Below, in pieces: positions 20,462-60,416 of a stretch of DNA of 64,000 bases. Position 1 is the stretch's first letter, and every line of letters begins with the position of its first letter. The stretch is from NCBI RefSeq assembly GCF_013122565.1, contig NZ_CP053258.1; one strand, given 5' to 3'. Origin of the DNA: Escherichia coli (GTDB lineage: Bacteria > Pseudomonadota > Gammaproteobacteria > Enterobacterales > Enterobacteriaceae). Made by a program: the position numbers and the translations under genes. The notes below the pieces were generated by a model. That model was not told the origin of the DNA. It ran no database searches and worked only from the letters and a program-made list of their open reading frames with translations.

Positions 20462-20620
20462 ACGCTTCCCTCTGCAAAGTGAGCCTTCAGTCTAAAACTT
20501 TTCACTGTATTGTGTTTAACAGTTATAGCTTTTAGCAATTAATGCAACAGGTTAAACCTACTTTCAGCGAATACATTTTAGCGTGATCATTACAGGCATA
20601 AATCTATGAGGAGAGAAATA

Positions 20621-20878: not shown

Positions 20879-20883
20879 TCGTC

Positions 20884-20926
20884 TGACAAGCCCTCGCGTT
20901 GAGGGCTTTACTGATTTTTTCTGTGC
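20884..20926. terminator. bidirectional rho-independent terminator between grxA and ybjM
   Basis: hairpin aagccctcgcgttgagggctt followed by T-run; convergent genes on both sides. Confidence 0.65.
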
Positions 20927-21285
20927 TGTGGTTTAAACAAGCTGCTGATAAATAAGAAACACAGTGCCCCCAGCGCACACCAGAACACCGCGCTTAGTAA
21001 CCATGCCAGCTCTTGCCAGAATGAGCGGGTCGGTGAAAAAAACAGCCGCATAATAAGCATTGAACAGGGTGCCGCCAGCATTGCGCCAAACAGAGGTTTC
21101 AGGACTTCTCTACGCTGTGAAAAGAAACTGGCAACTGCTCCAGGAAGAATGAAAAACAGCAAGCCGATTTCAGGATGCCCGGCAGCCCGAAAAGCGCCTT
21201 TCATGTGCGTCGCCAGAAAAAGGCACACCACAATGAAGAGGACAAAACAGCAGATTGCCCCCGCCCAACGTTGTTTATGTTTCAC
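20908..21285 (-). CDS. ybjM: inner membrane protein YbjM
   Basis: 125-aa membrane ORF, synteny. Confidence 0.85.
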   Translation of the reverse strand: MKHKQRWAGAICCFVLFIVVCLFLATHMKGAFRAAGHPEIGLLFFILPGAVASFFSQRREVLKPLFGAMLAAPCSMLIMRLFFSPTRSFWQELAWLLSAVFWCALGALCFLFISSLFKPQHRKNQ

Positions 21286-21554
21286 TCGTTCCTCCTGACA
21301 CTGCGTCTATCGAACACATTTTTCGCCAGTGTGGCGTTCAGTAAGATAAAGCCGCTTCGCATTCCATGCTAATATAGGCCAACGCAATTCATATAGCCGT
21401 TGATACCTAATGTGATTACACTAGTAAAATATATTGTTACTTTACTATCGTTTAGGTGCGCTGAATGAATCTGCGCCCTGAATTCTGGTAAAAAACATTA
21501 TCGTAAATTACCATTTCTTTCAACAGCTTACTAGTAAACAAGAAGTTAGCCTCC

Positions 21555-23240
21555 GTGAATATAAACGTCGCCGAATTGTTAAATGGGAATTACATTCTGT
21601 TATTATTTGTGGTCCTCGCGCTTGGGCTATGTCTCGGAAAGTTACGACTTGGTTCGATCCAACTGGGTAATTCCATTGGCGTTTTAGTCGTATCGCTGTT
21701 ATTAGGCCAACAACATTTCAGCATTAACACCGACGCGCTTAATCTTGGCTTTATGCTGTTTATTTTCTGCGTCGGGGTCGAAGCCGGACCGAACTTTTTT
21801 TCCATTTTTTTTCGCGATGGGAAAAATTACCTAATGTTAGCACTGGTGATGGTTGGCAGTGCGCTGGTGATCGCCTTAGGGTTAGGTAAGCTGTTTGGCT
21901 GGGATATTGGCCTGACGGCCGGTATGTTAGCCGGCTCTATGACGTCGACACCGGTTCTGGTCGGTGCTGGCGATACACTGCGTCATTCCGGCATGGAAAG
22001 CAGGCAGCTCTCACTGGCGCTGGATAATCTGAGCCTCGGCTATGCCTTAACCTATTTAATCGGTCTGGTGAGTTTGATTGTTGGTGCGCGTTACTTGCCG
22101 AAATTGCAGCATCAGGACTTACAGACCAGCGCCCAGCAAATCGCCCGCGAACGTGGCCTGGACACTGATGCCAACCGTAAGGTTTATTTACCGGTGATCC
22201 GCGCCTATCGCGTCGGCCCGGAGCTGGTGGCCTGGACCGACGGCAAAAATCTGCGTGAACTGGGTATTTATCGACAAACCGGCTGCTACATTGAACGTAT
22301 TCGACGTAACGGGATTCTGGCAAATCCAGACGGTGATGCCGTGCTACAAATGGGCGATGAAATAGCGTTAGTAGGCTATCCCGACGCCCATGCCCGACTC
22401 GATCCCAGCTTCCGTAACGGTAAAGAAGTTTTCGATCGTGACCTTCTCGACATGCGTATCGTCACTGAAGAAGTGGTCGTTAAAAACCATAACGCTGTAG
22501 GTAAACGTCTCGCACAACTGAAGTTGACCGATCACGGTTGCTTCCTTAACCGCGTCATTCGTAGCCAGATTGAGATGCCGATAGATGACAACGTCGTGCT
22601 TAACAAAGGTGACGTTTTACAAGTCAGCGGCGATGCCCGCCGCGTAAAAACCATCGCCGATCGCATCGGCTTTATCTCGATTCACAGCCAGGTCACTGAC
22701 CTGCTGGCATTCTGCGCCTTCTTTGTTATTGGGCTGATGATCGGGATGATCACCTTCCAGTTCAGCACATTCAGTTTCGGCATGGGGAACGCTGCCGGGT
22801 TGTTATTCGCCGGAATTATGCTGGGCTTTATGCGTGCTAACCACCCGACCTTCGGTTACATTCCGCAAGGTGCATTAAGCATGGTGAAAGAGTTCGGCTT
22901 GATGGTGTTTATGGCAGGCGTTGGTCTGAGCGCCGGTAGCGGTATTAATAACGGCCTGGGCGCGATTGGCGGTCAAATGTTGATTGCCGGATTGATTGTC
23001 AGTCTGGTGCCCGTGGTTATCTGTTTCTTGTTCGGTGCTTATGTATTGCGAATGAACCGCGCACTGTTGTTCGGCGCAATGATGGGCGCACGCACCTGCG
23101 CGCCGGCAATGGAGATCATCAGTGATACAGCTCGCAGTAACATCCCGGCGCTGGGCTATGCGGGCACCTACGCAATCGCCAACGTCCTGCTGACGCTGGC
23201 AGGGACAATCATCGTCATGGTATGGCCAGGATTAGGATAA
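21555..23240 (+). CDS. ybjL: putative transport protein YbjL (AAE family, TrkA-C domains)
   Basis: 561-aa ORF (V/M)[19 protein letters not shown]..., probable GTG start. Confidence 0.9.
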
Positions 23241-43263: not shown

Positions 43264-45030
43264 ATGAACACCACACTGACACCCGCAGATCTCGATCCCC
43301 GTCGGCAGGCCATGCTGCTGTACTTTCAGGGATACCGCGTAGCCCGCATTGCTGAAATGCTGGGCGAGAAAGTTGCAACCGTTCACAGCTGGAAAAAACG
43401 CGACAAGTGGGGTGACTATGGGCCGCTGGATCAGATGCAGCTCACCACCGCCGCACGCTACTGCCAGCTCATCATGAAGGAGCACAAAGAAGGGAAAGAT
43501 TTCAAAGAGATTGACCTGCTGGCGCGCCAGTCTGAGCGCCACGCGCGGATCGGCAAGTTTAACAATGGCGGCAACGAATCCGACTTAAACCCTAACGTCG
43601 CCAACCGCAACAAAGGCCCACGCCGTCAGCCGGAAAAGAATGTTTTCACCGATGAGCAGATTGAGAAGCTGGAAGAAATCTTCCATTCCTCCATGTTCAA
43701 CTACCAGCGCCACTGGTGGGAAGCCGGAAAAACCAACCGCATCCGCAACCTGCTGAAGTCACGCCAGATCGGCGCGACCTTTTACTTTGCCCGTGAAGCC
43801 CTGATTGACGCCCTGCTGACCGGACGTAACCAGATTTTCCTTTCCGCCAGCAAGGCACAGGCCCACGTCTTTAAGCAGTACATCATCGACTTCGCCAAAG
43901 AAGTGGAGGTGGAGTTGAAAGGCGATCCGATGGTGCTTCCTAACGGGGCCACGCTTTACTTCCTCGGCACCAATGCCCGCACGGCCCAGAGTTATCACGG
44001 CAACCTGTATCTGGATGAATATTTCTGGATACCGAAATTCCAGGAGCTGCGCAAAGTGGCTTCCGGTATGGCTATTCACAAGAAATGGCGACAAACCTAT
44101 TTTTCCACGCCATCCAGCCTGACACACAGTGCTTATCCGTTCTGGTCCGGTGCGCTATTCAACCGTGGGCGCAACAAAGCCGATAAGGTGGACATCGACC
44201 TGTCCCACAGCAATCTGGCCCCCGGCCTGCTGTGCGCAGACGGGCAATACCGCCAGATTGTCACCGTGGAAGATGCAGTGCGCGGCGGATGTAACCTGTT
44301 CGACCTCGATCAGTTACGCATGGAGTACAGCCCGGACGAATACCAGAACCTGCTGATGTGCGAGTTTGTGGACGATCTCGCGTCTGTGTTCCCACTCAGC
44401 GAGCTGCAGGCGTGCATGGTGGACAGCTGGGAAGTCTGGACCGACTTTCATGCACTGGCACTGCGCCCATTTGGCTGGCGCGAAGTGTGGATCGGTTATG
44501 ACCCGGCGAAAGGTACGCAGAACGGCGACAGTGCCGGATGCGTGGTGGTGGCACCGCCAGCCGTGCCGGGCGGCAAGTTCCGCATTCTTGAGCGTTACCA
44601 GTGGCGCGGGATGGACTTTCGCGCCCAGGCTGACGCCATCAAAAAACTGACCGAACAGTACAACGTGACCTATATCGGCATCGACTCAACCGGCGTTGGT
44701 CACGGGGTTTATGAGAACGTGAAAGCGTTCTTTCCTGCCGTCCGGGAGTTTGTCTACAACCCCAACGTTAAAAACGCCCTGGTACTCAAGGCCTACGACA
44801 TTATCAGCCACCGCCGTCTGGAGTTTGACGCCGGGCACACCGACATTGCGCAGTCATTCATGGCAATCCGTCGCGCCACCACCGCCAGTGGCAACCGCCC
44901 GACCTATGAAGCCAGCCGCAGCGAAGAAGCCAGCCACGCCGATCTGGCCTGGGCAACGATGCACGCACTGTTTAACGAACCGCTGCAGGGCGAATCCGCC
45001 AATACCAGCAATATTGTGGAGATTTTTTGA
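43264..45030 (+). CDS. P: terminase large (ATPase) subunit P
   Basis: 588-aa ORF at P2 P position. Confidence 0.85.
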   Translation: MNTTLTPADLDPRRQAMLLYFQGYRVARIAEMLGEKVATVHSWKKRDKWGDYGPLDQMQLTTAARYCQLIMKEHKEGKDFKEIDLLARQSERHARIGKFNNGGNESDLNPNVANRNKGPRRQPEKNVFTDEQIEKLEEIFHSSMFNYQRHWWEAGKTNRIRNLLKSRQIGATFYFAREALIDALLTGRNQIFLSASKAQAHVFKQYIIDFAKEVEVELKGDPMVLPNGATLYFLGTNARTAQSYHGNLYLDEYFWIPKFQELRKVASGMAIHKKWRQTYFSTPSSLTHSAYPFWSGALFNRGRNKADKVDIDLSHSNLAPGLLCADGQYRQIVTVEDAVRGGCNLFDLDQLRMEYSPDEYQNLLMCEFVDDLASVFPLSELQACMVDSWEVWTDFHALALRPFGWREVWIGYDPAKGTQNGDSAGCVVVAPPAVPGGKFRILERYQWRGMDFRAQADAIKKLTEQYNVTYIGIDSTGVGHGVYENVKAFFPAVREFVYNPNVKNALVLKAYDIISHRRLEFDAGHTDIAQSFMAIRRATTASGNRPTYEASRSEEASHADLAWATMHALFNEPLQGESANTSNIVEIF

Positions 45031-46064
45031 TGGGAAAGAGTAAGAAGAACCGAGCTGCGGCGACGAAACAGATCCAGCTTAAAAGTCAAACTACAGCCGA
45101 AGCATTCAGCTTCGGCGATCCCGTTCCTGTTCTGGACCGCCGAGAATTACTGGACTATGTGGAATGCGTACAGATGGACCGTTGGTATGAGCCGCCCGTC
45201 AGCTTTGACGGACTGGCGCGCACCTTCCGCGCTGCAGTGCATCACAGTTCCCCGATTGCAGTAAAGTGCAACATTCTGACCAGTACCTACATCCCTCACC
45301 CGCTGCTCAGCCAGCAGGCTTTTTCACGTTTTGTGCAGGACTATCTGGTATTTGGTAACGCCTACCTGGAGAAACGCACGAACCGATTCGGTGAAGTTAT
45401 CGCCCTTGAGCCTGTGCTGGCAAAATACACCCGACGCGGGTTAGACCTGGATACCTACTGGTTTGTGCAATACGGCATGACTACACAGCCGTATCAGTTC
45501 ACGAAAGGCAGCATTTTTCACCTGATGGAACCGGATATCAACCAAGAGATCTACGGCCTGCCCGGTTATCTTTCTGCCATTCCGTCAGCCCTGCTCAACG
45601 AGTCCGCCACGCTGTTCCGCCGCAAGTATTACATTAACGGCAGCCACGCAGGCTTCATCATGTACATGACCGACGCCGCGCAGAACCAGGAGGATGTAAA
45701 CAACCTCCGTAACGCGATGAAAAGCGCCAAAGGACCAGGCAACTTCCGTAACCTGTTTATGTACTCGCCGAACGGCAAAAAGGACGGGCTTCAGATCATC
45801 CCATTGTCTGAAGTCGCGGCAAAGGATGAGTTTCTGAATATCAAAAATGTTAGTCGCGATGACATGATGGCGGCACACCGCGTGCCGCCGCAAATGATGG
45901 GGATTATGCCTAATAATGTTGGGGGGTTTGGGGATGTGGAGAAAGCGAGTATGGTATTTGTGAGGAATGAATTAATTCCTCTACAAAGGCGTTTAGAAGA
46001 GCTTAATTTGTGGCTAGAAGAGGAAGCCATAAAATTCAAACCATACAATTTATCAGATAATTAG
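45027..46064 (+). CDS. Q: portal protein Q
   Basis: 345-aa ORF overlapping P stop, P2 Q position. Confidence 0.85.
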   Translation: MMGKSKKNRAAATKQIQLKSQTTAEAFSFGDPVPVLDRRELLDYVECVQMDRWYEPPVSFDGLARTFRAAVHHSSPIAVKCNILTSTYIPHPLLSQQAFSRFVQDYLVFGNAYLEKRTNRFGEVIALEPVLAKYTRRGLDLDTYWFVQYGMTTQPYQFTKGSIFHLMEPDINQEIYGLPGYLSAIPSALLNESATLFRRKYYINGSHAGFIMYMTDAAQNQEDVNNLRNAMKSAKGPGNFRNLFMYSPNGKKDGLQIIPLSEVAAKDEFLNIKNVSRDDMMAAHRVPPQMMGIMPNNVGGFGDVEKASMVFVRNELIPLQRRLEELNLWLEEEAIKFKPYNLSDN

Positions 46065-46071
46065 AATCATG

Positions 46072-46108
46072 GCCCTAGTATATTATCATTTTCACTAGGG
46101 CTTTCTTT
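46072..46108. terminator. hairpin plus T-rich tract between convergent Q and retron RT
   Basis: gccctagt..actagggc stem followed by tttctttct. Confidence 0.5.
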
Positions 46109-47869
46109 CTATATGCTGCATATTTTTTTATAATGTTCAAAAACATCTTTAAAAGTGTTGAGTATTATTTCAAAACCACTAAAATCAACTTTTCGTTTTT
46201 TATCCCTAACTACTTTCACAGAGAAAACATGTTTCCCATATTCAGTTTTTGAGTCCCCATCGTTCTTTTTGTTAAATTTTTTACCACCAAGAATAGTTGA
46301 TAATACATCATGAGTAAAAAGATCTTCCATCGCAGTCTGCTCACCAGTAGCACTTAAAGGCGTTAGAATGATATAGAGATTTTTAAAGACATGGATAAAT
46401 CTCATTTTTCTCATTTTATTGGTATCATCGGGGCAGCTCTTAACATTATTTTTAAGGAAATTCAAAATCTCATTAGAACCAGAATCGTTGTCCAATACCA
46501 TGATAACCGGGTGCTTAGGAATGCTTCCATAGTAGCTTGAATATTCATCCATATATCTTTCGATGAATTTTTTAAGATCTGCGCTACCTCCAGACATATT
46601 AATAAAATAACTTGACTTCTCATCAGATTTAAAAATATTCAAGTTGATATCATTTCCTTTACCGTCTGTGCTTTTCTTGAGCAACTCAGGAAATTTGGCA
46701 GAAAGTGAACGAATAGCTGATTTTAAATATACTCGATCAGTTTTGCCTTCTGTCAAGATTGTCGGGGAAGCATGTCCATGAAAAAACTTGTAGTAAATAA
46801 ATTTACTATATGCCTTCTCTCGTACATTCAGCTTTAACCTGTAGTTTTTTAATGTAATATGAATAGGCGCATATTTTTCAGGCTGTTTACTTATTTTATC
46901 TTGTATGTTATTAAATTTATCAATCTGGTCAATAAACCCAAATCTTCCCTCTAGTTTTTCGATACTCCCCACGACTAGCTTACCATCTTCATCAGGTAGC
47001 TTATATTCTCCCTTACTATAAAGTGAATGAGCTAATGCTCTTGTTTTATTCGAATATTTCCTATCAACGTTAACAAATCTATTTATAGTAAGTCCCGTAA
47101 CTTCTTGTCTCGTGGATTTGTACGAGATCCTTGTTTTAGCATCATTAATATCAAAACCAGCACGTTTTATTTCACTGACAAGAATGCTCCCCAAGACAAC
47201 CCCCTCAGGAAGAGATATTGCCAAATCGGTAGGAAATTCTTTTTTATTAGTTGAAAACGTGATGTCATCGGCATAACGACTATATGAACAACCTAAACTC
47301 TTTGCTAATTTAGCTAATCTAATATCCATAATGCTACAAATTAAGTTTGTTATCACTGGAGAACACGGGCTACCCTGAGGCAAACTTCCCTTATAGCATG
47401 CGGCTTTAGCTAAAGTAGTGGCGACAATCGGATTTAATAAGAAATCCCTATTGGATAGGAAGTACCCTCTCACTCGCCCAAAATTAAAGCTTTTGAAAAA
47501 ATCCTTAAGATCAATATTGAGTATTATATTTTTCCCACGATGTCTGAAAGCATTGGAAATTATTGACTTATTTCTTTCAAAACCAAAGGAGTAATTGTTT
47601 TTAATTTTTTTAATTTTGAAAGTTTCATCTCTACACTCCATTAAAAGATCGGCTATTCGTCTTTGGAGATCTTTCAAACTATCTTCTGGCGCAGAAATCA
47701 ATCTGACTCCCTTACCTTTTTTTGGAATAGAGAAATCTTTATACTGATTATCAGTACCAATTCTGTAAAGAATATTCGTTAAAAACACCAACTTAACATC
47801 TAGCAATTTTGCCAAGTCAGCACGAGATGCTGCGACTTTCAAAAGTAGTAATTTAGAAGTTGCGACCAT
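46109..47869 (-). CDS. ret: retron-type reverse transcriptase with C-terminal Toprim-like domain (Ec67/Retron-Eco2-like)
   Basis: 586-aa ORF; RT motifs [12 protein letters not shown] and YADD; C-terminal ..ILTEGKTD.. and ..VLDNDSG.. resemble Toprim E and DxD motifs; about 33% GC. Confidence 0.8.
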
Positions 47870-47908
47870 AATTATATTTTATCGTAGAAGTTAGTAAGAG
47901 AGGAAGAA

Positions 47909-48037
47909 CGCATGTAGGCACTCCTTCGCACAGCACAACGGCCCTATAGCGACGAAACAAGGATGTCAGGGATGCGATTCCACCTGCCATTAAAATCACT
48001 GGTTGTGATACACAACCAACAAATCTGCCTACATGCG
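47909..48037 (-). ncRNA. msr-msd: putative retron msr-msd non-coding RNA
   Basis: 12-bp perfect inverted repeats cgcatgtaggca (47909..47920) and tgcctacatgcg (48026..48037) flank a 105-nt region 40 nt upstream of RT start; G follows a1; internal hairpin ggttgtg-ata-cacaacc. Confidence 0.5.
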
Positions 48038-48105
48038 CATAAATGAAACTACCATTTCAACGTCTTCATTTCCAGTAATATATTTCAAATATCTACACTG
48101 AGCGC

Positions 48106-48124
48106 GCGCTCGTATCCCCGCCAC
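48106..48124 (-). other. putative cos (cohesive-end) site
   Basis: Minus strand GGCGTGGCGGGGATACGAG; first 13 nt match the P2/186 cos 5' motif GGCG(A/T)GGCGGGGA as I remember it. Confidence 0.4.
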
Positions 48125-48158
48125 GCCTGCCCGCTTTATGTAGTGGTTTTCATGCAGG

Positions 48159-48228
48159 TGCATGATCTACGCAAAAGCCCGCCAGTTCTGGCGGGCCTTA
48201 GCAAAAACGATCCTCAAACGATCATGCA
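48159..48228. other. compound palindromic structure (9-bp outer IR enclosing a 9-bp GC hairpin)
   Basis: tgcatgatc...gcccgccag tt ctggcgggc...gatcatgca seen directly; function unknown. Confidence 0.4.
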
Positions 48229-48469
48229 ATCTCATGCAGCATAGACATGCACAGACGAGTAAAGCGAATCGGACCTTACGCAAGGTGAACTCCTCAGCGG
48301 GCATAATCAGTATGTCGGAAGATCTCTAAAAATAAATAATTCGGTTAACAGGTATGCTTACAAAAGCATATATTTGATTAAAAATCATGTAAGGGGGAGG
48401 ATCTCAAACTGAATCGCCACGGGTTTTACAAATTTCGATAGTCTCTCTAACGTTTCGGCTGAGGTCAAA

Positions 48470-48895
48470 ATGAAAAGCTTTTACGTATTAATTTTAATTC
48501 TGGTTGCAAGCTTTGTTAGCGTCCCAGTTCAGGCGGTAACAGCTAAAAACTATGAGAAAGGAACTAAAGCTCAACAGAAATCAATATCTTACCTTTCATG
48601 TGCATTCTATGGCAGTAGCACACAATTAGATCCTAGCTACACGGAGCAAGTACCTACAGCCGATATCAAGATATTACAGAAAGCAGCTTACCACGCTTAC
48701 AACGATGCGCTCTCATACTTTGGCTATGAGGAACCAGATCACGAACAACGCATAATTGATTATGCTGAATTTGTGGCGTCGCAAGAAGCTGTGTTATGGG
48801 ATAAGCCGGGAATGAATGGAAAGCAGGTAACACTAATTGCTCGTTCTCTCTACAATGAGAGTAACTGTAACTTGTTACTGGACTCAATTAAGTAG
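48470..48895 (+). CDS. hypothetical secreted protein (signal peptide)
   Basis: 141-aa ORF MKSFYVLILILVASFVSVPVQA...; AT-rich; opposite strand to neighbours. Confidence 0.6.
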   Translation: MKSFYVLILILVASFVSVPVQAVTAKNYEKGTKAQQKSISYLSCAFYGSSTQLDPSYTEQVPTADIKILQKAAYHAYNDALSYFGYEEPDHEQRIIDYAEFVASQEAVLWDKPGMNGKQVTLIARSLYNESNCNLLLDSIK

Positions 48896-49054
48896 GAAAA
48901 AGATGGTATTTTGCCCGTAGTTTCAACCTTAATCTCCGAACCTGTCGCAGAACGGGCGTTCACTCATCAAATAAACGCCACACCTAACGCCTCACTGTAC
49001 TCGTTGTTCAACCTTGCTGACGCCAGAACCAAGTTCAGACGCCAGCAACTTTTC

Positions 49055-49288
49055 TTAATGCAGCCAGCTGTCGTCTTCCCACACCTTCTGCATAATCTTC
49101 ATCACTTGTTTTCTTTCTTCGTCCAGTTGCAGTCCGGTCAGTTCCACACCGTTAGAGCTACCTTTGCGGATGCGAATTACCGTTTTGGGATACAGGGGGC
49201 GCAGATTGCGGTAAAGCTCGGATTCAAGGGCGTCCAGGGTAGACTGGCTAATCTTCTGCTCTTTATCGATCATTATTTCAATGCGCAT
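49055..49288 (-). CDS. DinI-like protein (Tum/antirepressor C-terminal-domain-like)
   Basis: 77-aa ORF MRIEIMIDKEQKISQSTLDALESEL...WEDDSWL resembling the DinI family; GAGGTGA RBS upstream. Confidence 0.7.
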   Translation of the reverse strand: MRIEIMIDKEQKISQSTLDALESELYRNLRPLYPKTVIRIRKGSSNGVELTGLQLDEERKQVMKIMQKVWEDDSWLH

Positions 49289-49298
49289 AAAGGTCACC

Positions 49299-49487
49299 TC
49301 AGCTGATGACATCCATTGAGCGGTTGTATTCGTGGGTTCTGATTTTTGCCATGAGTTCATCAGTCAATTCAGAAACCCACTGCAGAGCCAGCCCCTTCTC
49401 TTCATCACTACACTCACTAGCCGCTACAAGCTTAAGAAAAAAATCAATGCGCTGGAGCTTCAAAGACTCCAAAAAATAGTCCTGCAT
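49299..49487 (-). CDS. hypothetical small protein (first gene of LexA-box-associated operon)
   Basis: 62-aa ORF just upstream of the DinI-like gene. Confidence 0.5.
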   Translation of the reverse strand: MQDYFLESLKLQRIDFFLKLVAASECSDEEKGLALQWVSELTDELMAKIRTHEYNRSMDVIS

Positions 49488-49529
49488 CTTTCCTCCTATG
49501 ACACCAAAGCAATACTGTATATATAACCA

Positions 49530-49639: not shown

Positions 49640-52054
49640 TTAATACAGGTTCCGCCACTTATCATCTTCCTGCAAACGCTGGTTCCGATAGAAGATACGC
49701 AGGCCTGCTCCTGACGGAATACTGCCGCCGCGAAGGAGTAAATCGACCTCTTTCTCGCTGCCATCAAATCCTCTGGACTTCAGTTCATAGACGAGCTGCT
49801 GTCGCTGATGGTCTGTAATTCGCTGTTTGTAGTCTTTACGCCGTTTCGGTTTCACCAGGCGTAACCTTGCAGCCAGTTCCCGGCGCTCTTTTTTGCTCAT
49901 ACTGTGCAGGTATTCGTGCAACTCCTTGTCATCCATGCGGGTAATGTCCGTTCTGGTATCCCCATCAGCTGATTTGTCTTTCCCTTGTTGGTTCAAATTT
50001 TCAGCAAGGGGACAGTTATTGCCACGAGTCCAAGGGGCGCAAGCGCCCTGGTCGGCTACCGCCTCCTGAACGTCAACGGCTTTACGAACCATTTTCCACT
50101 TCACTGCATGAGTGCAGATCTTGCCCTCTGCAATGGGTGACCAGATGCCATAAATACGAATGCCGTGATCGCCATAGGCGGTCGGCTCTTCGTTAATTTC
50201 ATAAGCAGTTCTGATGAGGTGATATTTGCGGGGAACCAGTACGCCGCCCTGCTTCATGATGTAAGTGGCAAAACAACCAGCATCAGCAGCAGCCAGGATT
50301 GCATCAAGGCGCGGGTTATCCAGTACCGGCGCACCTGCTTTTTTGTCCCCCTGTTGCCTTGCCGCCTGACCAGCCAACAATCGCAGTTCACGGTAAGCCT
50401 GACGCCCCGGAATGCCAAAGAAGCGGAATTGCTGAACACGATGCAAAGACGCCCAGGCATTCACGTATTCAGCGTTATCACGCAGAGATTTACCCGTTTC
50501 CTTGCTGATCTCGCCAGCCAGACCACGCCCGTCAATGTTCTTACTGATGTATTTCGCGATGTAGCTTGTTGGCGTACCTTTGCGCGGGTTTATCAGCTCA
50601 GACTTAAAGCGTGGTCCCGTGTTATTACCCAGCTCCTCGCGGTCTTCACGAATGGCAAACTTACGCAACAAAGCAGTAATGGCTCGGCGATCTTTTTTGC
50701 GCATAAAACACAACAGGTGCCAGTGCACTGTACCGTCATGATGCGGCTCAGCCACCCGCACGCCATACCAGCGCAATCCGGCTTTGTGCATCGCTTTACG
50801 AAATGCAGCAAACATGCCGACCAGATAATCACTGCTTTGTCTTACCGTCGCGTTTGTCCAGGTCGGGTTTGGTCTGCCGTTATTTAGCGTGGAATGGAAA
50901 CGTGACGGACAGGTGATGGTGTAGAAAACGGCGCAGTCACCGCGCATTTCCGCGATAAGCTCCAGACCTTTAACACAGGCCATCATCTCATTGCGGCGAT
51001 GCGCAGGGTTGCTGCTGCTGGCGTTTACCACGTCTTCCATATCCAGCGTGTCGCCGTCTTCGTTCACCAGTTCATGAGAACGAAAAAACTCCAGCGACTT
51101 ACGGCGCTGCTCACGTTTATGCATCACGGCTTCATAGCTGACATAGGGAGATGCTTTTTTGCTGACCAGGCAGACAGCGCGCAACTGCTCTTCCCGCCAT
51201 TCGCAACGCATCTTCCATAATTTCCGATACCACCAGTCGGCGCACAACATACGCGCCAGCGAACCCGGAATGAGTTCATAGGGCACGGGTTTACGGCGGT
51301 TTCTTTTCCGGCGGAGTTGCTCAAACGCAGGTGGGATGACATCCAGTCGCAGGGTTTCTGCTGCCACCCTTTCCCATGTCTTGCGGATTTCTTCTGGCTT
51401 AACGTCATCGGTGGCATACAAATCGCCACAAGCTGCATCAAGGCACATGCTCATATGCGCAGCTACCAGGGTGGACAGGCGTTTCACCTGATCCTGACTC
51501 ATTTCAGGCAGGATCAGCAGGCCGTCCAGCCCTTCCTGGCTCGCCATAAAGCGAAAAGCAGTGGATAGCTGACTGTCGCGTACATGCTCCAGCCGTTCCA
51601 GACATGGCTTAATCGTCTCACGCAAATAGCGGGAATAAGCCTTTGGCCTGCCCAGGCTGCTGAAGTATTCAATACGTTGCATCAGCGGCTTGCTGATATG
51701 GGAAGGCTGGGCGTTAACGTCCGCCAGAATGACCATGTCTGGATTAAAACGCTGCTGCTCATGCGCCAGCTTTGCCCGGCTAATGAGCTTATCCTGCTCT
51801 ATTTCGCGTTGGACAGGATCACGGGATTCATTAAAGAAATAACGCTCCCAGACCTGATCACTCAGAGCCTCGCGGCGCAGTTGTTCCTGCTCGTTATCGG
51901 CAGCGTACAGAGTGATCAGGTTTGAAAGCGCAGAAACCGGCGCAACTTCCGCCGGGTCCAGATAAGGGTTAATGGCCTTTTTCGGGCTGTTCCATGAGAA
52001 TGCTGCGGCGACCTCGTTAAAGCCGCTGCAGTTGTTCATATCATCATGGCTCAT
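49640..52054 (-). CDS. A: replication initiation protein A (rolling-circle nickase)
   Basis: 804-aa ORF at P2/186 gene A position. Confidence 0.85.
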
Positions 52055-52908
52055 GCACGCACTCCGTACATGGCAGAACTATCCACGCCACGCGAAGGAT
52101 CAAATCCCACCCAGCAGCGCGCCCCGGAAACAGCAATGATTTCTGTTGCAGATTTACTCTCGCCAGCCGACACGCCGATGCTGCGTTTTGCCTTGATGTA
52201 GTGGTGAGTGAAATTGCGATACAGCGAACGAATCAGGGATGTGTCACTGTTAGAAACAATGACCGGATGTCCTTCAGATGCTCGATGTTCAAGAACGGAT
52301 GCCAGGTGATACTGGTCATCTTCAGTGAAACCATCAGTGTGATAGCCGGAAAACGTACCGTCATACGGCGGATCGCAATACACCACATCCCCCGCCTTCA
52401 ACATCGCCAGCGTTTCATCAAAGCTGGCGCAGATAAACGTTGCCCGCTGGGCTTTTTCTGCAAATGCGCGAATTTCTTTTTCAGGGAAATACGGATTTTT
52501 ATAATTACCGTAGGGAATGTTGAAATGCCCGCTCTTGTTATAGCGACATAAACCACGGTAACCGTGACGATTGAGATACAGGAAATATACCGCTTTCATG
52601 AAATCAGTAATTTCAGTGGAGTAATTAAACTCCTGCCTTATGTTGTAATAAGCCACCTCCCTGTTTGCGATCTCAAATAAAACTCTGGCGCGAGATATAA
52701 ACGATTCACAATCAGCGGCAACCTTTTTATAGAGGTTGATTAAATCAAGATTAATATCCGCAACCAGATAGCTTGGATAATCCGTCTCCATCATCACAGC
52801 ACAGGAACCCGCGAAAGGTTCAACCAGTCGCGGGCCAGCAGGAAGGTGTTTTTTCAGTTCGGACATAATTGCGGTTTTATTTCCCGCCCATTTCAGGATG
52901 GTGCTCAT
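52051..52908 (-). CDS. DNA adenine methyltransferase (Dam-like, phage-encoded)
   Basis: [11 protein letters not shown]..., DPPY catalytic motif, [16 protein letters not shown]; resembles E. coli Dam. Confidence 0.85.
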
Positions 52909-53132
52909 ACAGCACCTCCGTTGTAATGTTTGCCTTTCAGCTCTGCGATTTCCTGACAGGTAATGCAAAGCTGCACTCCCGGAATGGCGCGGCGTCGTGC
53001 TGGCGGAATTGGCGCTTCACATTCAATGCAAAGTACGCGTGACACGCCCGGTGATTTGGCACGGGCTGCACGGATATGGCGCTGGCGTTCTTCTTCAACG
53101 CGCTGCTGTACGAGATCCATTGCATCAGCCAT
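52905..53132 (-). CDS. TraR/DksA-family C4 zinc-finger protein
   Basis: 75-aa ORF with CIECEAPI...CITCQ. Confidence 0.7.
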   Translation of the reverse strand: MADAMDLVQQRVEEERQRHIRAARAKSPGVSRVLCIECEAPIPPARRRAIPGVQLCITCQEIAELKGKHYNGGAV

Positions 53133-55054: not shown

Positions 55055-55651
55055 ATGTCAACATCAAAGTACCCAAGTGAGATCAAAATAAATCCCAATA
55101 AAGGTGGTAAGGCTGCGATTGAGCGATTAGTCGAAGCCTATGGCTTTACGACACGACAGGCTTTAGCTGATCACTTGGAAGTATCAAAAAGCACACTAGC
55201 GAACAGGTATTTGCGGGATACATTTCCTGCTGACTGGATAATCCAATGTGCTCTTGAAACAGGAACCTCCCTCAAATGGTTAACTACCGGACAAGGCCTT
55301 AAGCAAAGCTCGCTGACAGCAGCTACAGAAGAGCTTGTTAAGTTTCGCCTTGCCGCAGGCAAAATGATTGAAGACGGTTCATATGTCTTCGATTCATCAT
55401 TTCTTCCTGCAAACCTTTCATCACCAATTGTTATTCAGGATGGACTCGTCACATACATTTGTGATCAAAAATTTTCTGAAGTACTTGATGGAAACTGGTT
55501 AATCAATATCGACGGAACCTATTCCATTCGAAAAATCACAAGGCTTCCTAAAGGAATGATTAAAATTACAACAGCAGAGAATAGCTTTGAATGTGCATTT
55601 TCTGATATTGAAGTGGTTGCTTGTATAAGAAGTACAATAGTCTCGAATTAA
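55055..55651 (+). CDS. cI: CI-type immunity repressor (186-like)
   Basis: 198-aa ORF, HTH N-terminal region; divergent from lytic operon. Confidence 0.75.
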   Translation: MSTSKYPSEIKINPNKGGKAAIERLVEAYGFTTRQALADHLEVSKSTLANRYLRDTFPADWIIQCALETGTSLKWLTTGQGLKQSSLTAATEELVKFRLAAGKMIEDGSYVFDSSFLPANLSSPIVIQDGLVTYICDQKFSEVLDGNWLINIDGTYSIRKITRLPKGMIKITTAENSFECAFSDIEVVACIRSTIVSN

Positions 55652-55671: not shown

Positions 55672-57348
55672 ATGAATTCATTTGCCATCGTTATACTCTT
55701 ATTAGCATTTCTCGCCCCTGTTCTAGCTGTAATATTATTTAAACAAAGTAAAAAACACAAAGCGGCTATAGATAACCTGACAGCTAACAACATAGCCCTT
55801 TCTAACCAACTGATTGAAAATCAAGAAAAACTAGCACAGACCGTACGAGAATTATCAGATCTTGAAGGGCGAGCAGCACCATTGTGGCAATACGAAGAAT
55901 TGCACAGCGCAGTAATGGATGCAGAGAATAAGATAAAAAATGCGGACTCAATAGCCAAGCAAAAAATAGATGAAGCCCAAATTAAGGCGGCTAAAACAGT
56001 AAACGAAGCAAATTATCAAGCTCAGATAACAATAAGCAACGCTAATAGCGAAGCTATAGCAATCACCAAAGACGCTCGCGATGCACGCCTGAAAGCCAAA
56101 GAACGTCTTGATAATGCTAATAATAAAGCAAATGAGCTAATCTCAAATGCTAATGACAATGCAGTAAAAATTATTTCTGATGCAGAAGAAAGAGCAAAGG
56201 AGATTGCTGGTTCAGCATATGAAGCTAAAGAGTTTGCAGAAAAATATGAAGCAGTTGCAAAATCAATGAAAAATAAAATTGAAGGTTATGGTGATGAATG
56301 GATCATCCCTAACCGTAGTGTACTTGATGAGCTGGCAGAAAATTATGAATTTACAGATGCAGGCAAGGAATTACAAAAAGCCAGAGAGTTAACCAAATCA
56401 TTAATAAAAACTAATAAAGCTGCTTCGTGTGATTATGTTGAGCAAAACAGGCGTAATACTGCCATAAACTTTGTTTTGGATGCCTTCAATGGAAGAGTTG
56501 ACAGTATTTTATCAAAAGTCAAACACAACAATTTTGGAAAACTTTCCCAAGAAATAAAAGATGCATTTCAACTAGTAAATTACAATGGCTCTGCCTTTAG
56601 GTCCGCAAAAATAAGTGACATCTATCTTCAGGCAAGACTCAACGAGCTAAAATGGGGTGTAGCAGTTAATGAAATTATGCTCGAAGAAAAAGAAGAGCAA
56701 AGAAGGATTAAAGAACAGCTTCGTGAAGAGGAAAGAGCTCGTAGAGAATATGAAAAAGCGATAAAAGAAGCTGAAAAAGAAGAAAAAGCTATTCAGCAAG
56801 CTATAAATAAAGCAACGAAAGAACTTATGCTTGCAAATGAAGAACAACGCTTAGCTTTAGAGCAAAAAATAGCTGAACTACAGTTAAAATATGAAGAAGC
56901 TGAAGCTAAAAATCAACGAGCTATTTCTATGGCTCAACAAACCAGATCAGGCCACGTCTATATCATTAGTAATATTGGTTCATTTGGCGAAGATGTATAT
57001 AAAATTGGAATGACACGCCGCCTTGAACCACTTGATCGTGTTCGTGAACTCGGAGATGCTAGTGTTCCTTTTTCGTTCGATGTTCATGCGATGATTTATA
57101 GTGATGATGCACCATCATTAGAAAACCATCTGCATAAAGTTTTCAACGAAAAGCAGGTCAATAAAATTAACTCACGAAAAGAGTTTTTTAACGTAAATTT
57201 AAAAGAAATCAAATCAGTTATTGAAGACATGAACATCAACGCCCACTGGACAATGTTTGCAGAGGCGAAAGAATATAGAGAGTCTCTAGCTATTGAGCAG
57301 GAGCGCAAAGCAGCCACTTCCGCCAACGATGAACTACATGTTGCTTAG
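55672..57348 (+). CDS. membrane-anchored coiled-coil protein with C-terminal T5orf172/GIY-YIG-like domain
   Basis: 558-aa ORF; N-terminal TM; long coiled-coil repeats; C-terminal GHVYIISN...YKIGMTRR...RVRELG; about 37% GC; between cI and int. Confidence 0.65.
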   Translation: MNSFAIVILLLAFLAPVLAVILFKQSKKHKAAIDNLTANNIALSNQLIENQEKLAQTVRELSDLEGRAAPLWQYEELHSAVMDAENKIKNADSIAKQKIDEAQIKAAKTVNEANYQAQITISNANSEAIAITKDARDARLKAKERLDNANNKANELISNANDNAVKIISDAEERAKEIAGSAYEAKEFAEKYEAVAKSMKNKIEGYGDEWIIPNRSVLDELAENYEFTDAGKELQKARELTKSLIKTNKAASCDYVEQNRRNTAINFVLDAFNGRVDSILSKVKHNNFGKLSQEIKDAFQLVNYNGSAFRSAKISDIYLQARLNELKWGVAVNEIMLEEKEEQRRIKEQLREEERARREYEKAIKEAEKEEKAIQQAINKATKELMLANEEQRLALEQKIAELQLKYEEAEAKNQRAISMAQQTRSGHVYIISNIGSFGEDVYKIGMTRRLEPLDRVRELGDASVPFSFDVHAMIYSDDAPSLENHLHKVFNEKQVNKINSRKEFFNVNLKEIKSVIEDMNINAHWTMFAEAKEYRESLAIEQERKAATSANDELHVA

Positions 57349-57430: not shown

Positions 57431-58486
57431 ATGGCAGTACGAAAACTAACCACAGGGAAATGGCTTTGCGAATGTTACCCCGCCGGACGTAGCGGACGCC
57501 GTGTGCGTAAACAATTCGCCACCAAAGGCGAAGCACTGGCCTTCGAGCGATACACCATGGGGGAAATAGAAGCAAAGCCCTGGCTGGGCGAATCAGTGGA
57601 TCGTCGGACACTGAAAGATATGGTTGAGCTATGGTTCAAATTACATGGCAAATCTCTTACTGCCGGACAGCATGTCTACAACAAGCTGCTGTTGATGGTT
57701 GACGCCTTGGGAAATCCCCTTGCAACTGATCTCACCTCAAAAATGTTTGCTCACTATCGCGATAAACGCCTTACTGGTGAAATCTACTTCAGTGAAAAAT
57801 GGAAGAAAGGAGCAAGCCCAGTTACTGTTAACCTGGAGCAAAGCCATCTAAGCAGCGTTTTCAGAGAACTTTCCCGCCTGGGTGAATGGACACTTCCAAA
57901 CCCATTAGAGAAGATGCGCAAATTCACTATCGCAGAAAAGGAAATGGCATGGCTTACACATGAGCAGATTATCGAATTACTGTCTGACTGCAAACGTCAG
58001 AACCCAATTCTGGCACTGGTGGTAAAAATATGTCTAAGTACAGGCGCACGTTGGCGAGAAGCAATCAATCTTACCCGCTCACAGGTCACCAAGTACCGAA
58101 TCACCTTTGTGAGAACGAAGGGGAAGAAAAACAGAAGCATCCCTATCAGTAAAGAGCTTTATGAAGAGATCATGGCGCTCGATGGGTTCAATTTCTTCAC
58201 AGACTGCTATTTTCAATTTTTATCCGTGATGGAAAAAACGTCTATCGTTCTCCCTCGCGGTCAACTGACACACGTTCTGCGCCATACGTTTGCGGCGCAC
58301 TTCATGATGTCGGGTGGAAACATCTTGGCCTTACAAAAAATTCTCGGACACCACGATATAAAAATGACTATGCGTTATGCGCATCTGGCACCGGATCATT
58401 TGGAAACGGCGCTCCGTTTCAATCCACTGGCAACGTTACCAAATGGCGACAAAGTGGCGGCAGCGGTTGGCATTACCCCGCAATAA
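57431..58486 (+). CDS. int: tyrosine integrase (P2/186 family)
   Basis: 351-aa ORF with R..HxxR..Y catalytic pattern (TGARWREA...LRHTFAAHF...MRYAH). Confidence 0.85.
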   Translation: MAVRKLTTGKWLCECYPAGRSGRRVRKQFATKGEALAFERYTMGEIEAKPWLGESVDRRTLKDMVELWFKLHGKSLTAGQHVYNKLLLMVDALGNPLATDLTSKMFAHYRDKRLTGEIYFSEKWKKGASPVTVNLEQSHLSSVFRELSRLGEWTLPNPLEKMRKFTIAEKEMAWLTHEQIIELLSDCKRQNPILALVVKICLSTGARWREAINLTRSQVTKYRITFVRTKGKKNRSIPISKELYEEIMALDGFNFFTDCYFQFLSVMEKTSIVLPRGQLTHVLRHTFAAHFMMSGGNILALQKILGHHDIKMTMRYAHLAPDHLETALRFNPLATLPNGDKVAAAVGITPQ

Positions 58487-58587: not shown

Positions 58588-59124
58588 CTACCCTGCAACC
58601 CTCTCAACCATCCTCAAAATCTCCTCGCGCGATAGCGGCTTACGGTCGGTGACAAAATGCAGCGTCATCCCCTCAATAAACGCATCAAGCGCGCGGGCGG
58701 TTCCGGGTTCAAACCATTGTTCGAGCGTTTGCTGACTGCGCTGCATCCAGTTTTGCATTACCGTTTTTAATAGCGGTTTTCGGCTAGCCAGCGCGTAGAG
58801 CTGGTACATCAGCTCCATGTTATCCGGCGTTGCCACCTGTGAGCTGTAGATCATATCGGTGATAGCCTGGCATGCGCCTTGAGCATCACGAACATCGCTA
58901 AAAAATGCCTGATATTGCCGGGACATGATCTCAGTAAAACTGCTGAACGCCTCCAGCAACAACTCATCAATTCCTGAAAAATAGTAGGTCATCGATCCCA
59001 ACGGTACCCCGGCAAGGGTAGCAATTTTGCGGTGCGTAACAGCATGTATTCCGTAAAGTTTCACCGCCTCCAGCGTGGCCTGGATAATTTTTTCTCGCCG
59101 TTGCGGATCGTTAGCGCGACGCAT
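58588..59124 (-). CDS. rcdA: TetR-family regulator RcdA (YbjK)
   Basis: [25 protein letters not shown]... Confidence 0.88.
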
Positions 59125-59207
59125 GTCATTTCCTCTCTCTGCAATTGTGTACAAATGTACACAACCTTGCTAATGTTGTCTTCCCTCTTCTTATTTTGAC
59201 GTGATCT

Positions 59208-60416
59208 ATGACCGTAAATTCTTCACGTAATGCATTGAAACGCCGAACCTGGGCGCTGTTTATGTTCTTCTTTTTGCCAGGCCTGTTAATGGCGTCCTGG
59301 GCAACCCGTACGCCTGCTATCCGCGATATTCTCTCTGTCTCGATCGCTGAAATGGGCGGTGTTCTCTTTGGTCTGTCGATCGGTTCGATGAGCGGTATTC
59401 TCTGCTCGGCGTGGTTAGTGAAACGCTTTGGGACACGTAATGTCATCCTGGTCACGATGTCCTGCGCATTGATCGGGATGATGATATTAAGTCTGGCACT
59501 CTGGCTGACATCGCCCCTGCTCTTCGCGGTTGGTCTCGGTGTCTTTGGGGCAAGTTTTGGTTCTGCGGAAGTGGCGATAAACGTTGAAGGTGCCGCCGTT
59601 GAGCGAGAAATGAATAAAACGGTTTTGCCGATGATGCACGGTTTTTATAGCCTGGGCACGCTGGCAGGCGCTGGTGTCGGGATGGCACTGACGGCCTTTG
59701 GCGTTCCGGCAACGGTGCACATTTTATTGGCGGCGCTGGTGGGCATCGCGCCTATTTATATCGCCATTCAGGCAATCCCTGACGGTACGGGCAAAAATGC
59801 TGCCGATGGCACCCAGCATGGCGAAAAAGGCGTACCTTTTTATCGCGATATCCAGTTGCTGTTGATTGGTGTTGTAGTGCTGGCGATGGCCTTTGCCGAA
59901 GGTTCTGCCAACGACTGGTTACCCTTATTAATGGTTGACGGTCACGGTTTTAGCCCTACTTCCGGCTCGCTGATTTATGCCGGTTTTACCCTGGGGATGA
60001 CCGTTGGACGCTTCACCGGCGGTTGGTTCATCGACCGTTACAGTCGCGTTGCCGTGGTTCGTGCCAGTGCACTAATGGGGGCGTTGGGTATTGGGCTGAT
60101 TATTTTTGTCGATAGCGCCTGGGTCGCTGGGGTGTCTGTTGTACTCTGGGGACTGGGTGCCTCGCTGGGCTTCCCGCTGACCATTTCTGCCGCCAGCGAT
60201 ACCGGCCCCGATGCACCAACCCGCGTCAGTGTGGTAGCAACGACCGGTTATCTGGCTTTCCTCGTCGGGCCGCCGCTGCTGGGCTATCTCGGCGAACATT
60301 ATGGATTACGTAGTGCAATGCTGGTTGTACTGGCGCTGGTTATTCTCGCGGCTATTGTCGCGAAAGCCGTCGCCAAACCCGATACCAAAACGCAAACGGC
60401 GATGGAGAATAGTTGA
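59208..60416 (+). CDS. ybjJ: MFS transporter YbjJ
   Basis: 402-aa 12-TM ORF, synteny. Confidence 0.85.

Follow-up and report, generated by a model that had tools for sequence, protein, structure and literature searches.

A retron of the Ec67 family next to the cos site of a 186/P2-like prophage in Escherichia coli

Introduction

Retron-Eco2 (Ec67) is a type I-C1 retron of E. coli for which structures are available (9I2F, 9I2G, 9S1F and 9LM3). It is described as a trimeric, msDNA-caged complex in which tRNA cleavage is triggered by nucleases (PMC12916289, PMC12405507). The priming nucleotide of Eco2 is G15 (PMC12916289), and a CAGA context of the priming G is typical for Ec67 (PMC6868368). In the protein, E374, D378, D460 and D462 are catalytic (PMC12405507, PMC12916289) and S513 is a metal-B ligand (PMC12405507); EGxxD together with DxD is the signature of types I-C1 and I-C3, while I-C2 has DxE (PMC7736814). 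The phage nuclease DenB cuts Eco2 msDNA before dC15, 17, 31 and 37 (PMC12916289). The Ec67 family is already well studied, and the retron described here, found in a 64-kb stretch of DNA (the window, meaning the whole stretch that was analysed), is a sibling of that known system with nothing new in kind.

Several other systems share parts of this organization. Retron-Eco1 (Ec86), of type II-A, resembles the window locus in having a retron reverse transcriptase (RT) and an msr-msd ncRNA, but it employs a separate effector protein and has no Toprim fusion, and its RT matches that of the window with just E = 1.7e-35 over residues 13–286. Ec86 is reported to replace the same ~180 bp, from cos to the packaging-gene terminator, in a 186-related prophage (PMC6868368); for the position of Ec67 and Ec86 next to cos, that paper cites Dodd and Egan. 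Types XII (RT-TIR) and XI (RT-protease) are single-protein fusion retrons (PMC7736814) with RT domains that are sister to that of the window (PADLOC over the RT part: RT-TIR_XII, 4e-96; RT-Protease_XI, 3e-93). Their RT is fused to a TIR domain or a protease where the window has Toprim, and the NCBIfam TIR model scores the window protein at 264 bits, below its cut-off of 600. Finally, the OLD-family Toprim nucleases, which include P2 Old, Gabija GajA, PARIS AriB and the retron I-B effectors (PMC12405507, PMC9122126), have in common with Ec67-family retrons a Toprim core (E, DxD, two-metal site) and an anti-phage role by abortive infection. P2 old even occupies the same gpA-gpQ hotspot as the window retron (PMC9122126). 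Unlike OLD-family proteins, the window protein has no ABC ATPase sensor, and its Toprim domain is fused to the RT and presumably gated by msDNA; the I-C Toprim is a lineage of its own (PMC7736814).

Results

The protein is an RT-Toprim fusion with intact active sites

The protein-coding part of the locus comprises the following features.

46109..47869, minus strand: RT-Toprim fusion gene, 586 aa, retron Ec67 family type I-C (ORF and family models)
47264..47275, minus strand: YADD, RT residues 199–202 (invariant in 48/48 family members; numbering identical in the Eco2 structure, PMC12916289)
46112..46771, minus strand: C-terminal Toprim nuclease domain, about residues 367–586 (residues read from the translation, family alignment)

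A preliminary description of this DNA had proposed a 586-aa RT carrying YADD and QGxxxSP motifs, assigned it to a described retron family and noted Toprim-like E and DxD motifs at its C terminus. All three points held. The second RT motif reads QGSPCSP (residues 165–171), and the ORF passes NCBIfam model NF038237 (retron_Ec67_fus) with 685.9 bits against a cut-off of 450. Its best PADLOC model is RT-Toprim_I-C (6.4e-213). The top PDB matches are retron RTs, the best of them the 'Retron Ec67 protein' (9lm3/9i2f; E = 4e-288), gap-free over residues 1–583. The exact protein is present on 119 public contigs from several enterobacterial species, and databases already use the family name for it.

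Pfam found RVT_1 (residues 48–262, 8e-27) as its only match in the ORF and did not detect a Toprim domain; we assign that domain from the published catalytic residues (PMC12405507, PMC12916289) and from the way the protein aligns, free of gaps, with the solved Ec67 protein. The EGxxD signature is present as E374-G-K-T-D378 and DxD as D460-N-D462, and E374, G375, D378, D460, D462, E515 and K546 are all invariant in 48/48 family members. Residue 513 is Ala in the window protein. We considered this as an inactivating change, given the role of S513 in Eco2, and dropped the idea, since Ala occurs at this position more often than any other residue in the family (20/48 members). The 'catalytic K562' of PMC12405507 was likewise set aside, residue 562 being Asp in both Ec67 and the window and the invariant Lys being K546; we take the number 562 to come from a different protein.

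The GC content of the RT-Toprim gene is 33.6%, as against 49.8% for the window. The fusion gene and its ncRNA have cos on one side and portal gene Q on the other, and no gene for a separate effector accompanies them. Reading the sequence by eye revealed no clear Shine-Dalgarno sequence before the RT-Toprim ATG.

A retron ncRNA lies directly upstream of the RT gene

Upstream of the fusion gene, and on the same strand, the window contains the elements of a retron ncRNA.

47909..48039, minus strand: retron ncRNA, msr-msd (covariance model and fold; 5′ end by analogy with Ec67, the branching G being nucleotide 15)
48026..48037, minus strand: a1 arm of the terminal inverted repeat (helix 1; 11/12 pairs with compensatory changes, 99.2% of cells paired)
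47909..47920, minus strand: a2 arm of the terminal inverted repeat (12/12 complementary to a1)
48025, minus strand: predicted branching (priming) guanosine in CAGA context, the first base after a1
48000..48018, minus strand: msr hairpin with an 8-bp stem (48000–48007/48011–48018) and a 3-nt loop (inverted-repeat scan and covariation)
47922..47988, minus strand: msd template (register transferred from Ec67 without indels)

The perfect 12-bp repeat enclosing 105 nt and the msr-like hairpin were recovered as first described; pairing of the arms reaches 13 bp if one extra pair is allowed. The repeat had been placed 40 nt upstream of the RT, and although its upstream position is correct, a2 and the ATG are 39 nt apart by measurement. 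The G first after a1 also stood up: A-G-A following a1, which includes the position of G48025, is invariant in 43/43 distinct ncRNA sequences. The distinct ncRNAs likewise share an invariant A-G-T that closes the template at its 3′ end and directly precedes a2. An msDNA of 67 nt is predicted, which would correspond to the plus strand from 47922 to 47988, 5′-TCCTTCGCACAGCACAACGG...CCACCTGCC-3′.

The ncRNA folds at -53.2 kcal/mol (z = -3.96). A second stem in the minimum-energy RNA fold, GUGAUUUUA/UGGAAUCGC, was dropped, as a by-hand comparison found no such pairing in the Ec67-type sequence. DNA folds of the msDNA are weak (-4.9 kcal/mol for the window, -6.2 for Ec67) and differ in register, and we draw no structural conclusion from them. 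A scan of positions 45000–49500 against Rfam 15 at E <= 1 gave 0 matches.

Conservation, and not the repeat by itself, identifies the ncRNA

Homologues were sought in IMG/VR with an alignment; a contig scan with the single protein as query had returned 142 pattern matches and 0 relatives. At the homologous loci an a1/a2 repeat followed by GA lies 14–70 nt upstream of the RT match. Absence of conserved repeats from such loci had been named beforehand as grounds for abandoning the retron assignment; instead, the repeats are kept with compensatory substitutions. For the a1/a2 and msr helices together, 99% of cells are paired across the 43 distinct sequences and 16/19 pairs show compensatory changes. 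None of 500 shuffles reached the observed values, and slid controls pair just 28–44%. The homologous ncRNAs were chosen with the help of the a1/a2 helix, which makes the pairing statistics of that helix partly circular. No such circularity affects the msr hairpin (helix 2; 5/7 pairs compensatory, 98.7% of cells paired) or the covariance-model test. The covariance-model search proposed in the preliminary description was run with a model, R1, built from 39 more distant members, the window locus and its close relatives being excluded. It matched 47909–48037 on the minus strand with 99 bits (E = 2.5e-25) and full-length model coverage; elsewhere in the 64 kb it gave one 11-bit noise match.

Random sequence contains a perfect 12-nt inverted repeat with a 60–250 nt gap at a mean of 1.01 per 64 kb (100 resamples), and the window has 1. 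The repeat by itself is therefore not significant. What gives it meaning is that it lies just upstream of a retron RT and shares its strand, that homologous loci keep it through compensatory changes, and that the covariance model matches independently.

The window retron differs in sequence from Ec67

The preliminary description had matched the locus to Ec67 by its length, prophage family and co-resident Dam gene. These likenesses, and the position next to cos, are real (PMC6868368, PMC9122126), but the allele is not that of Ec67. Alignment to Ec67, another check suggested there, was carried out using a homologous locus (L002) whose protein is canonical Ec67 (1325 bits to the PDB chain). The window protein is 70% identical to it, and about as similar to the solved Ec67 structure, to which it aligns without gaps. 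Eco2 is likewise a 586-aa RT-Toprim fusion with equal numbering of YADD, EGxxD and DxD; its ncRNA, a1 and a2 included, is likewise 129 nt long, aligns without indels and has the priming G in CAGA; and its msDNA has the 67 nt predicted for the window, the first 16 nt being identical. At the nucleotide level the RT genes are 69% identical, the ncRNAs 86.8% and the flanking spacers 57–66%. We rejected identity with Ec67 itself given the 70% amino-acid identity and the 17/129 ncRNA and 11/67 msDNA positions that differ; judged by its sequence, the window retron is a sibling allele of Ec67.

The msDNA differences fall at positions 17, 19, 23, 30–32, 36, 44, 46, 52 and 61. With the register transferred, all four cut positions published for DenB (15, 17, 31 and 37) are dC in the Ec67-type sequence. 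The window msDNA keeps dC15 and dC37, but positions 17 and 31 are dA, as is the position before dC37, which is T in Ec67. At 47915, in a2, Ec67-type loci carry G instead of the window's A, and the resulting U.G, in place of U-A, is compatible with pairing. In the protein, the trimer-contact loop (residues 325–347) is identical at 10/23 positions (43%) compared with 70% overall. The least conserved 23-aa segments, starting at 322/323 and at 564 (near the C terminus), tie at 8/23 identical, and those starting at 322/323 overlap this loop.

The cassette lies between cos and portal gene Q

The surroundings of the retron are those of a 186/P2-like prophage.

45027..46064: portal gene Q (prophage context)
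46071..46102, unstranded: 9-bp GC-rich hairpin, followed by TTTCTTTCT on the plus strand, between the convergent RT and portal genes
about 48099..48155, unstranded: cos-homologous stretch of the prophage (100% match to phage Cartapus, 'putative cos site, homologous to the cos of P2 phage')
49640..52054: replication gene A (phrog_91)
52051..52968, minus strand: prophage Dam methyltransferase (TIGR00571, 321.6 bits against a cut-off of 114.85)

The retron sits on the Q side of cos, between gene A and portal Q, in agreement with the earlier placement at the P2 tin/old locus: gpA-gpQ is a defence hotspot of P2, which carries old and tin there (PMC9122126). This is precisely where Ec67 and Ec86 are described to lie (PMC6868368). 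The insertion site (cos to Q in a 186-like prophage) and the neighbours Dam, A and DinI are shared with Ec67, and the order Dam, A, orf, DinI, cos, ncRNA, RT, Q, P is common to the window and the Ec67 loci. Dam likewise lies upstream of gene A in three homologous loci (L001, L002 and L083).

An identity profile puts the right-hand limit of the cassette at ~48097. The hairpin at 46071..46102 folds at -18.1 kcal/mol (z = -5.56); its stem also follows the RT in a Raoultella locus (L084) with a different neighbourhood and is absent from Ec67-type loci, where the post-RT terminator hairpin differs. It is likely a terminator and part of the cassette. A possible ncRNA promoter, read from the sequence, is TGGAAA, 17 nt, TGgTAGTTT (extended -10) at 48046..48074 on the minus strand, which would start transcription at ~48039. 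TGGAAA, TG and TAnTTT are kept relative to Ec67-type loci, the spacer around them being 62–66% identical; a consensus promoter/terminator scan listed no promoter in the cos-msr spacer. The same scan labels the msr hairpin as a terminator-like site.

The whole cassette recurs at 99.7–100% identity in a second prophage with different flanks, which argues for recent spread and maintenance. Among 5,426 complete E. coli genomes, the window allele occurs in 0 and Ec67-type alleles in 13.

Discussion

We conclude, with a probability of roughly 0.92, that the window carries an intact type I-C1 retron of the Ec67/Eco2 family as cargo of a 186/P2-like prophage, most likely working by the mechanism of Eco2. 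A short transcript starting ~70 nt from cos would fold so that a1 (48026–48037) pairs with a2 (47909–47920), a pairing shown by covariation. By analogy with Ec67, the RT would prime from the 2′-OH of G48025 and copy the msd from 47988 to 47922 into a branched 67-nt msDNA. The Eco2 structures suggest that RT-Toprim and msDNA would then assemble as a trimer, with the Toprim nuclease caged by the msDNA. As in Eco2, cutting of the msDNA by a phage nuclease (DenB, A1) would free the Toprim domain, which would nick tRNAs, stop translation and abort the infection. The prophage would in this way shield its host against competing phages.

Since the msDNA, the DenB sites and the trimer-contact loop have diverged, trigger range and details of assembly may differ from those of Eco2. 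Taken further, the window allele could be a functionally distinct sibling of Eco2, of the same family and mechanism, in which the trimer hub, made up of contact loop 325–347 and msDNA nt 29–50, and the DenB-cut nucleotides diverged together and shifted the trigger, phage range or assembly. We regard this sequence-based proposal as tentative and rather improbable. In its favour, dC is lost at DenB sites 17 and 31 and the T before dC37 is changed, 6/11 msDNA differences fall in nt 29–50, the three-way-junction segment (PMC12916289), and few protein segments have diverged as far as the trimer-contact loop. On the other hand, DenB, an endonuclease acting on dC, has loose specificity, and many dC are left, among them dC15 and dC37; Eco2 is activated by DNase I alone (PMC12916289), so that any msDNA damage may suffice; and divergence of a loop and of weakly paired DNA can be neutral drift.

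Far less probable is an inactive relic, with RT and ncRNA still recognisable but msDNA production and defence lost. The want of an obvious Shine-Dalgarno sequence or scan-detected promoter and the Ala at 513 would fit such a reading; against it, the ORF is full length with every catalytic residue intact, the ncRNA arms pair perfectly and score 99 bits over the full model, the exact protein occurs on 119 public contigs and the near-identical cassette recurs in a second prophage, and Ala513 is the commonest residue in the family. That the RT belongs instead to a group II intron, DRT or Abi system, the repeat being a chance or regulatory palindrome near cos, is refuted by family models and covariation despite the chance frequency of such repeats and the empty Rfam scan: the group II model TIGR04416 scores 47.1 bits against a cut-off of 300 and Drt2 36.6 against 390, so that the clustering with non-retron RTs once named as a reason for rejection is not seen, the PDB places the protein with retron RTs, the repeat co-varies in 43 homologous sequences and the msr hairpin does so independently, and the C terminus is Toprim, with no intron RNA domains and no maturase or endonuclease domains.

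Retaining the reading of an intact Ec67-family retron, the locus leaves the understanding of retrons unchanged. A natural variant of Eco2 at 70% identity, with differences clustered at the trimer hub and the DenB sites, may nonetheless serve as a probe of msDNA trigger sensitivity. Were it a distinct sibling, the phage nucleases that trip the system could change, or co-assembly with Ec67-type retrons could be prevented, and arms-race selection would be acting on the msDNA sensor surface. The practical value lies mostly in annotation: this is a complete Ec67-family retron whose ncRNA pipelines omit, as the preliminary description had anticipated. The ncRNA is unannotated in RefSeq Ec67 loci as well, and Rfam is without a family for the locus despite very clean covariation across the 43 distinct sequences. 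At canonical Ec67 loci, the RT start codon in RefSeq is extended across the ncRNA.

The RT-Toprim protein belongs to the retron Ec67 family

The retron module, which consists of an RT-Toprim gene and an upstream msr-msd ncRNA, lies on the minus strand and comprises the following features.

Retron features
48026–48037, minus strand: a1 arm of the terminal inverted repeat, 12/12 complementary to a2
48000–48018, minus strand: msr hairpin, 8 bp, just inside the repeat
47909–47920, minus strand: a2 arm, 12/12 complementary to a1
47869 (ATG) to 46109 (end), minus strand: RT-Toprim ORF, 586 aa, from ORF calling
46071–46102: 9-bp GC-rich hairpin 3′ of the RT (fold −18.1 kcal/mol, z = −5.56)

The preliminary description had named RT motifs, Toprim-like E and DxD motifs, the inverted repeat, the hairpin and a G after a1, and each is present where it had placed them; in the protein these are QGSPCSP (residues 165–171), YADD (199–202), E374-G-K-T-D378 and D460-N-D462. 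Its assignment to the Ec67 (Eco2) family is borne out by the NCBIfam model "retron Ec67 family RNA-directed DNA polymerase/endonuclease" (685.9 bits, cut-off 450) and by the best PDB match, "Retron Ec67 protein" (9LM3, 9I2F, 9I2G, 9S1F; E = 4e-288), which aligns without gaps, window residues 1–583 to 1–583. The best PADLOC models are RT-Toprim_I-C (6e-213). A group II intron RT was rejected at 47 bits against a model cut-off of 300, as was Drt2 at 36.6 bits against 390.

Pfam detects RVT_1 only, so the Toprim call rests on alignment to the solved structure and on published catalytic residues. By the criteria of Mestre et al. (PMC7736814), EGxxD combined with DxD is the signature of I-C1/I-C3. 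YADD, E374, G375, K376, D378, D460, D462, G464, E515 and K546 are invariant in a 48-member family alignment. Among the named sites, only residue 513 differs from Ec67, with Ala in place of Ser; Ala is the most frequent residue there in the family (20/48 members). As read from its sequence, the gene is intact with all catalytic residues present; its GC content is 33.6%, vs 49.8% for the window. A "catalytic lysine K562" is named in PMC12405507, but residue 562 is Asp in both Ec67 and the window protein; the lysine that does not vary within the family is K546, part of the motif YGKH.

Covariation in the ncRNA

The two arms enclose 105 nt, a2 ends 39 nt before the ATG, and a1 is followed by a G (48025). 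About one perfect 12-nt inverted repeat with a 60–250 nt gap is expected by chance per 64 kb, so the repeat alone is no evidence. The family alignment was used to scan IMG/VR and gave 80 loci. Those of RT-Toprim type have GA after the best inverted repeat within the 330 nt that precede the RT. These homologous repeats end 14–70 nt before the RT match, span approximately 122–143 nt and are highly variable in sequence (for example CGCATGTAGGCA, GGTGTGCAGGCA, GGTTTATGGGCA and GGTCTATAAACA).

Across 43 distinct ncRNAs (alignment A3), 99% of cells in the a1/a2 helix and msr hairpin are paired and 16 of 19 pairs show compensatory double changes, although the a1/a2 statistics are partly circular because that helix was the selection criterion for homologues. 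None of 500 shuffles matched the observed pairing values, and sliding the partner by 1–3 columns as a control left 28–44% of cells paired. The msr hairpin, unused in selection, has 98.7% of cells paired and compensatory changes in 5 of its 7 pairs, and RNAalifold independently recovered the same two helices. The inverted repeats singled out in the preliminary description are thus conserved in homologous loci. For an independent test, a covariance model was built from 39 members, with the window and the three sequences most similar to it withheld; this model found 47909–48037 (minus strand) with full model coverage (99 bits, E = 2.5e-25), and the only other match in the 64 kb scored 11 bits. 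A-G-A after a1 and A-G-T directly before a2 are invariant among the 43 ncRNAs, and the priming G of the window has the CAGA context stated for Ec67 (PMC6868368). At the sequence level, selection has preserved the priming G together with the closing helix and the msr hairpin.

No Rfam 15 family matches the ncRNA region at E ≤ 1. As the preliminary description had anticipated, annotation misses the ncRNA, no such feature being present in the RefSeq records of two E. coli Ec67-type loci, L001 and L002. Their RT genes are annotated as 626 or 646 aa (L001 4171–6051, L002 3922–6047), starting 120–180 nt 5′ of the true ATG and so covering the msd or the entire ncRNA. L002 additionally has a "hypothetical protein" just upstream (3922–4116), which overlaps the beginning of this overlong RT CDS.

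Predicted msDNA and proposed mechanism

The msDNA register was transferred from Ec67, in which nucleotide 15 is the priming G and reverse transcription stops opposite G52 (PMC12916289). Applied to the Ec67-type sequence, this register yields a 67-nt msDNA with dC at 15, 17, 31 and 37; the exact agreement with the DenB cut positions reported in the literature validates the register. The predicted window msDNA is also 67 nt (plus strand, 47922 to 47988) and differs from Ec67 at positions 17, 19, 23, 30, 31, 32, 36, 44, 46, 52 and 61. Two of the four cut-site cytosines, dC17 and dC31, are replaced by dA, and A also replaces the T that precedes dC37.

We consider it very probable (roughly 0.92), by analogy with Eco2, that the locus is a functional family member with an Eco2-like mechanism. 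By the Eco2 scheme (PMC12916289, PMC12405507), synthesis would be primed at the 2′-OH of the G, and the RT would make a 67-nt msDNA that cages the Toprim domain in an assembled trimer. Cleavage by phage nucleases (DenB, A1) would be followed by msDNA decay, exposure of the Toprim site and nicking of tRNA acceptor stems, leading to translation arrest and abortive infection.

Six of the 11 msDNA changes fall in nt 29–50, the segment that in the Eco2 trimer forms the central DNA three-way junction (PMC12916289). The trimer-contact loop, residues 325–347, is the only protein–protein interface in that complex (PMC12916289); here the window protein is identical to Ec67 at 10/23 residues, against 70% overall. 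Two 23-aa segments of the protein, beginning at residues 322 and 323, overlap this loop and tie with the one beginning at 564, near the C terminus, as least conserved (8/23 identical). The loop region (residues 322–347, approximately 46829–46906) and the junction segment (msd 47939–47960), two of the parts most diverged from Ec67, meet in the Eco2 structure. Their joint divergence may reflect drift or selection on a sensor surface; a shift in trigger range or in assembly specificity relative to Eco2 is conceivable but rather unlikely.

Comparison with Ec67 and spread of the allele

Ec67-type loci occur in 13 of 5,426 complete E. coli genomes, all with approximately 72% DNA identity to the window, and the window allele in none of the 5,426. 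The L002 protein is canonical Ec67 (1325 bits to the PDB chain, residues 1–586) and is 70% identical to the window protein. The ncRNAs are of equal length without indels and differ at 17/129 positions. Identity to L002 is 86.8% for the ncRNA, 69% for RT DNA and 57–66% for the adjacent spacers, so constraint on the ncRNA exceeds that on the sequence around it. Terminase P (98%), gene A (95%) and portal Q (90%) are closer, and by this comparison the retron cassette is a module swapped within a prophage that is otherwise similar.

In an E. coli draft genome (L083), 46065–48097 is 99.7–100% identical and the flanks differ (Q 93%). The exact protein, publicly named "MULTISPECIES: retron Ec67 family...", is found on 119 public contigs from E. 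coli, Shigella, Citrobacter and Enterobacter. Family, mechanism, ncRNA architecture, prophage site and exact protein sequence are already in the literature or databases; the ncRNA annotation and predicted msDNA of this allele are previously unrecorded.

A 90% relative of the RT occurs in Raoultella. This R. ornithinolytica locus (L084, GCA_040425645.1, 5834–7830) carries the same cassette, with three differences in the ncRNA, and shares its likely terminator hairpin, 46071–46102 in the window, which thus accompanies the cassette into a different neighbourhood. The setting is not a P2-like prophage. It is an island with a DUF927-domain protein, AlpA and Bro-N, a DUF4238 gene lying nearby, and this content suggests a satellite-like island, so the module seems to pass from one type of mobile element to another.

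Prophage context and insertion site

Neighbouring prophage features
52051–52968, minus strand: Dam (TIGR00571, 321.6 bits)
49640–52054, minus strand: replication gene A
between gene A and the DinI-like gene, minus strand: 62-aa ORF
49055–49360, minus strand: DinI-like gene
48470–48895, plus strand: 141-aa ORF with a hydrophobic N-terminal stretch (possible signal peptide); phrog_7437, function unknown
about 48099–48155: cos
45027–46064: portal Q, convergent with the RT, then terminase P

Read along the minus strand, the order is Dam, A, the 62-aa ORF, the DinI-like gene, the opposite-strand 141-aa ORF, cos, ncRNA, RT-Toprim, convergent Q and P, and it is common to E. coli Ec67 loci. According to Dodd and Egan (1996), as relayed in PMC6868368, Ec67 and Ec86 replace approximately 180 bp between cos and the packaging-gene terminator of a 186-related prophage. 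The window retron occupies this site, inside the gpA–gpQ hotspot where P2 old and tin are located and retrons have been catalogued (PMC9122126). As a statement about the hotspot, the "P2 tin/old variable locus" of the preliminary description is therefore correct; the precise position is the Q side of cos. On the A side, the segment 48330–49054, which holds the 141-aa ORF, forms a second variable cargo slot of this hotspot: L001 lacks it, and in L002 and L083 it is only approximately 63% identical.

The prophage is approximately 35 kb, with its integrase at 57431–58486, and is flanked by chromosomal ybjL-type (21555–23240) and TetR/MFS (58588–60416) genes. The flank regions (4000–9000, 19468–23240 and 58588–60416) contain the art operon and nfsA-like, ybjL-like and TetR/MFS genes, and their best full-length matches in complete E. 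coli genomes are 97.4% identical. Retron Ec67 likewise maps to about 19 min, where these genes lie. Between a CI-type repressor (55055–55651) and the integrase, a 558-aa ORF (55672–57348, plus strand) matches PADLOC PD-Lambda-1 at 3e-120 and also phrog_1847, and is a candidate second anti-phage gene of the prophage.
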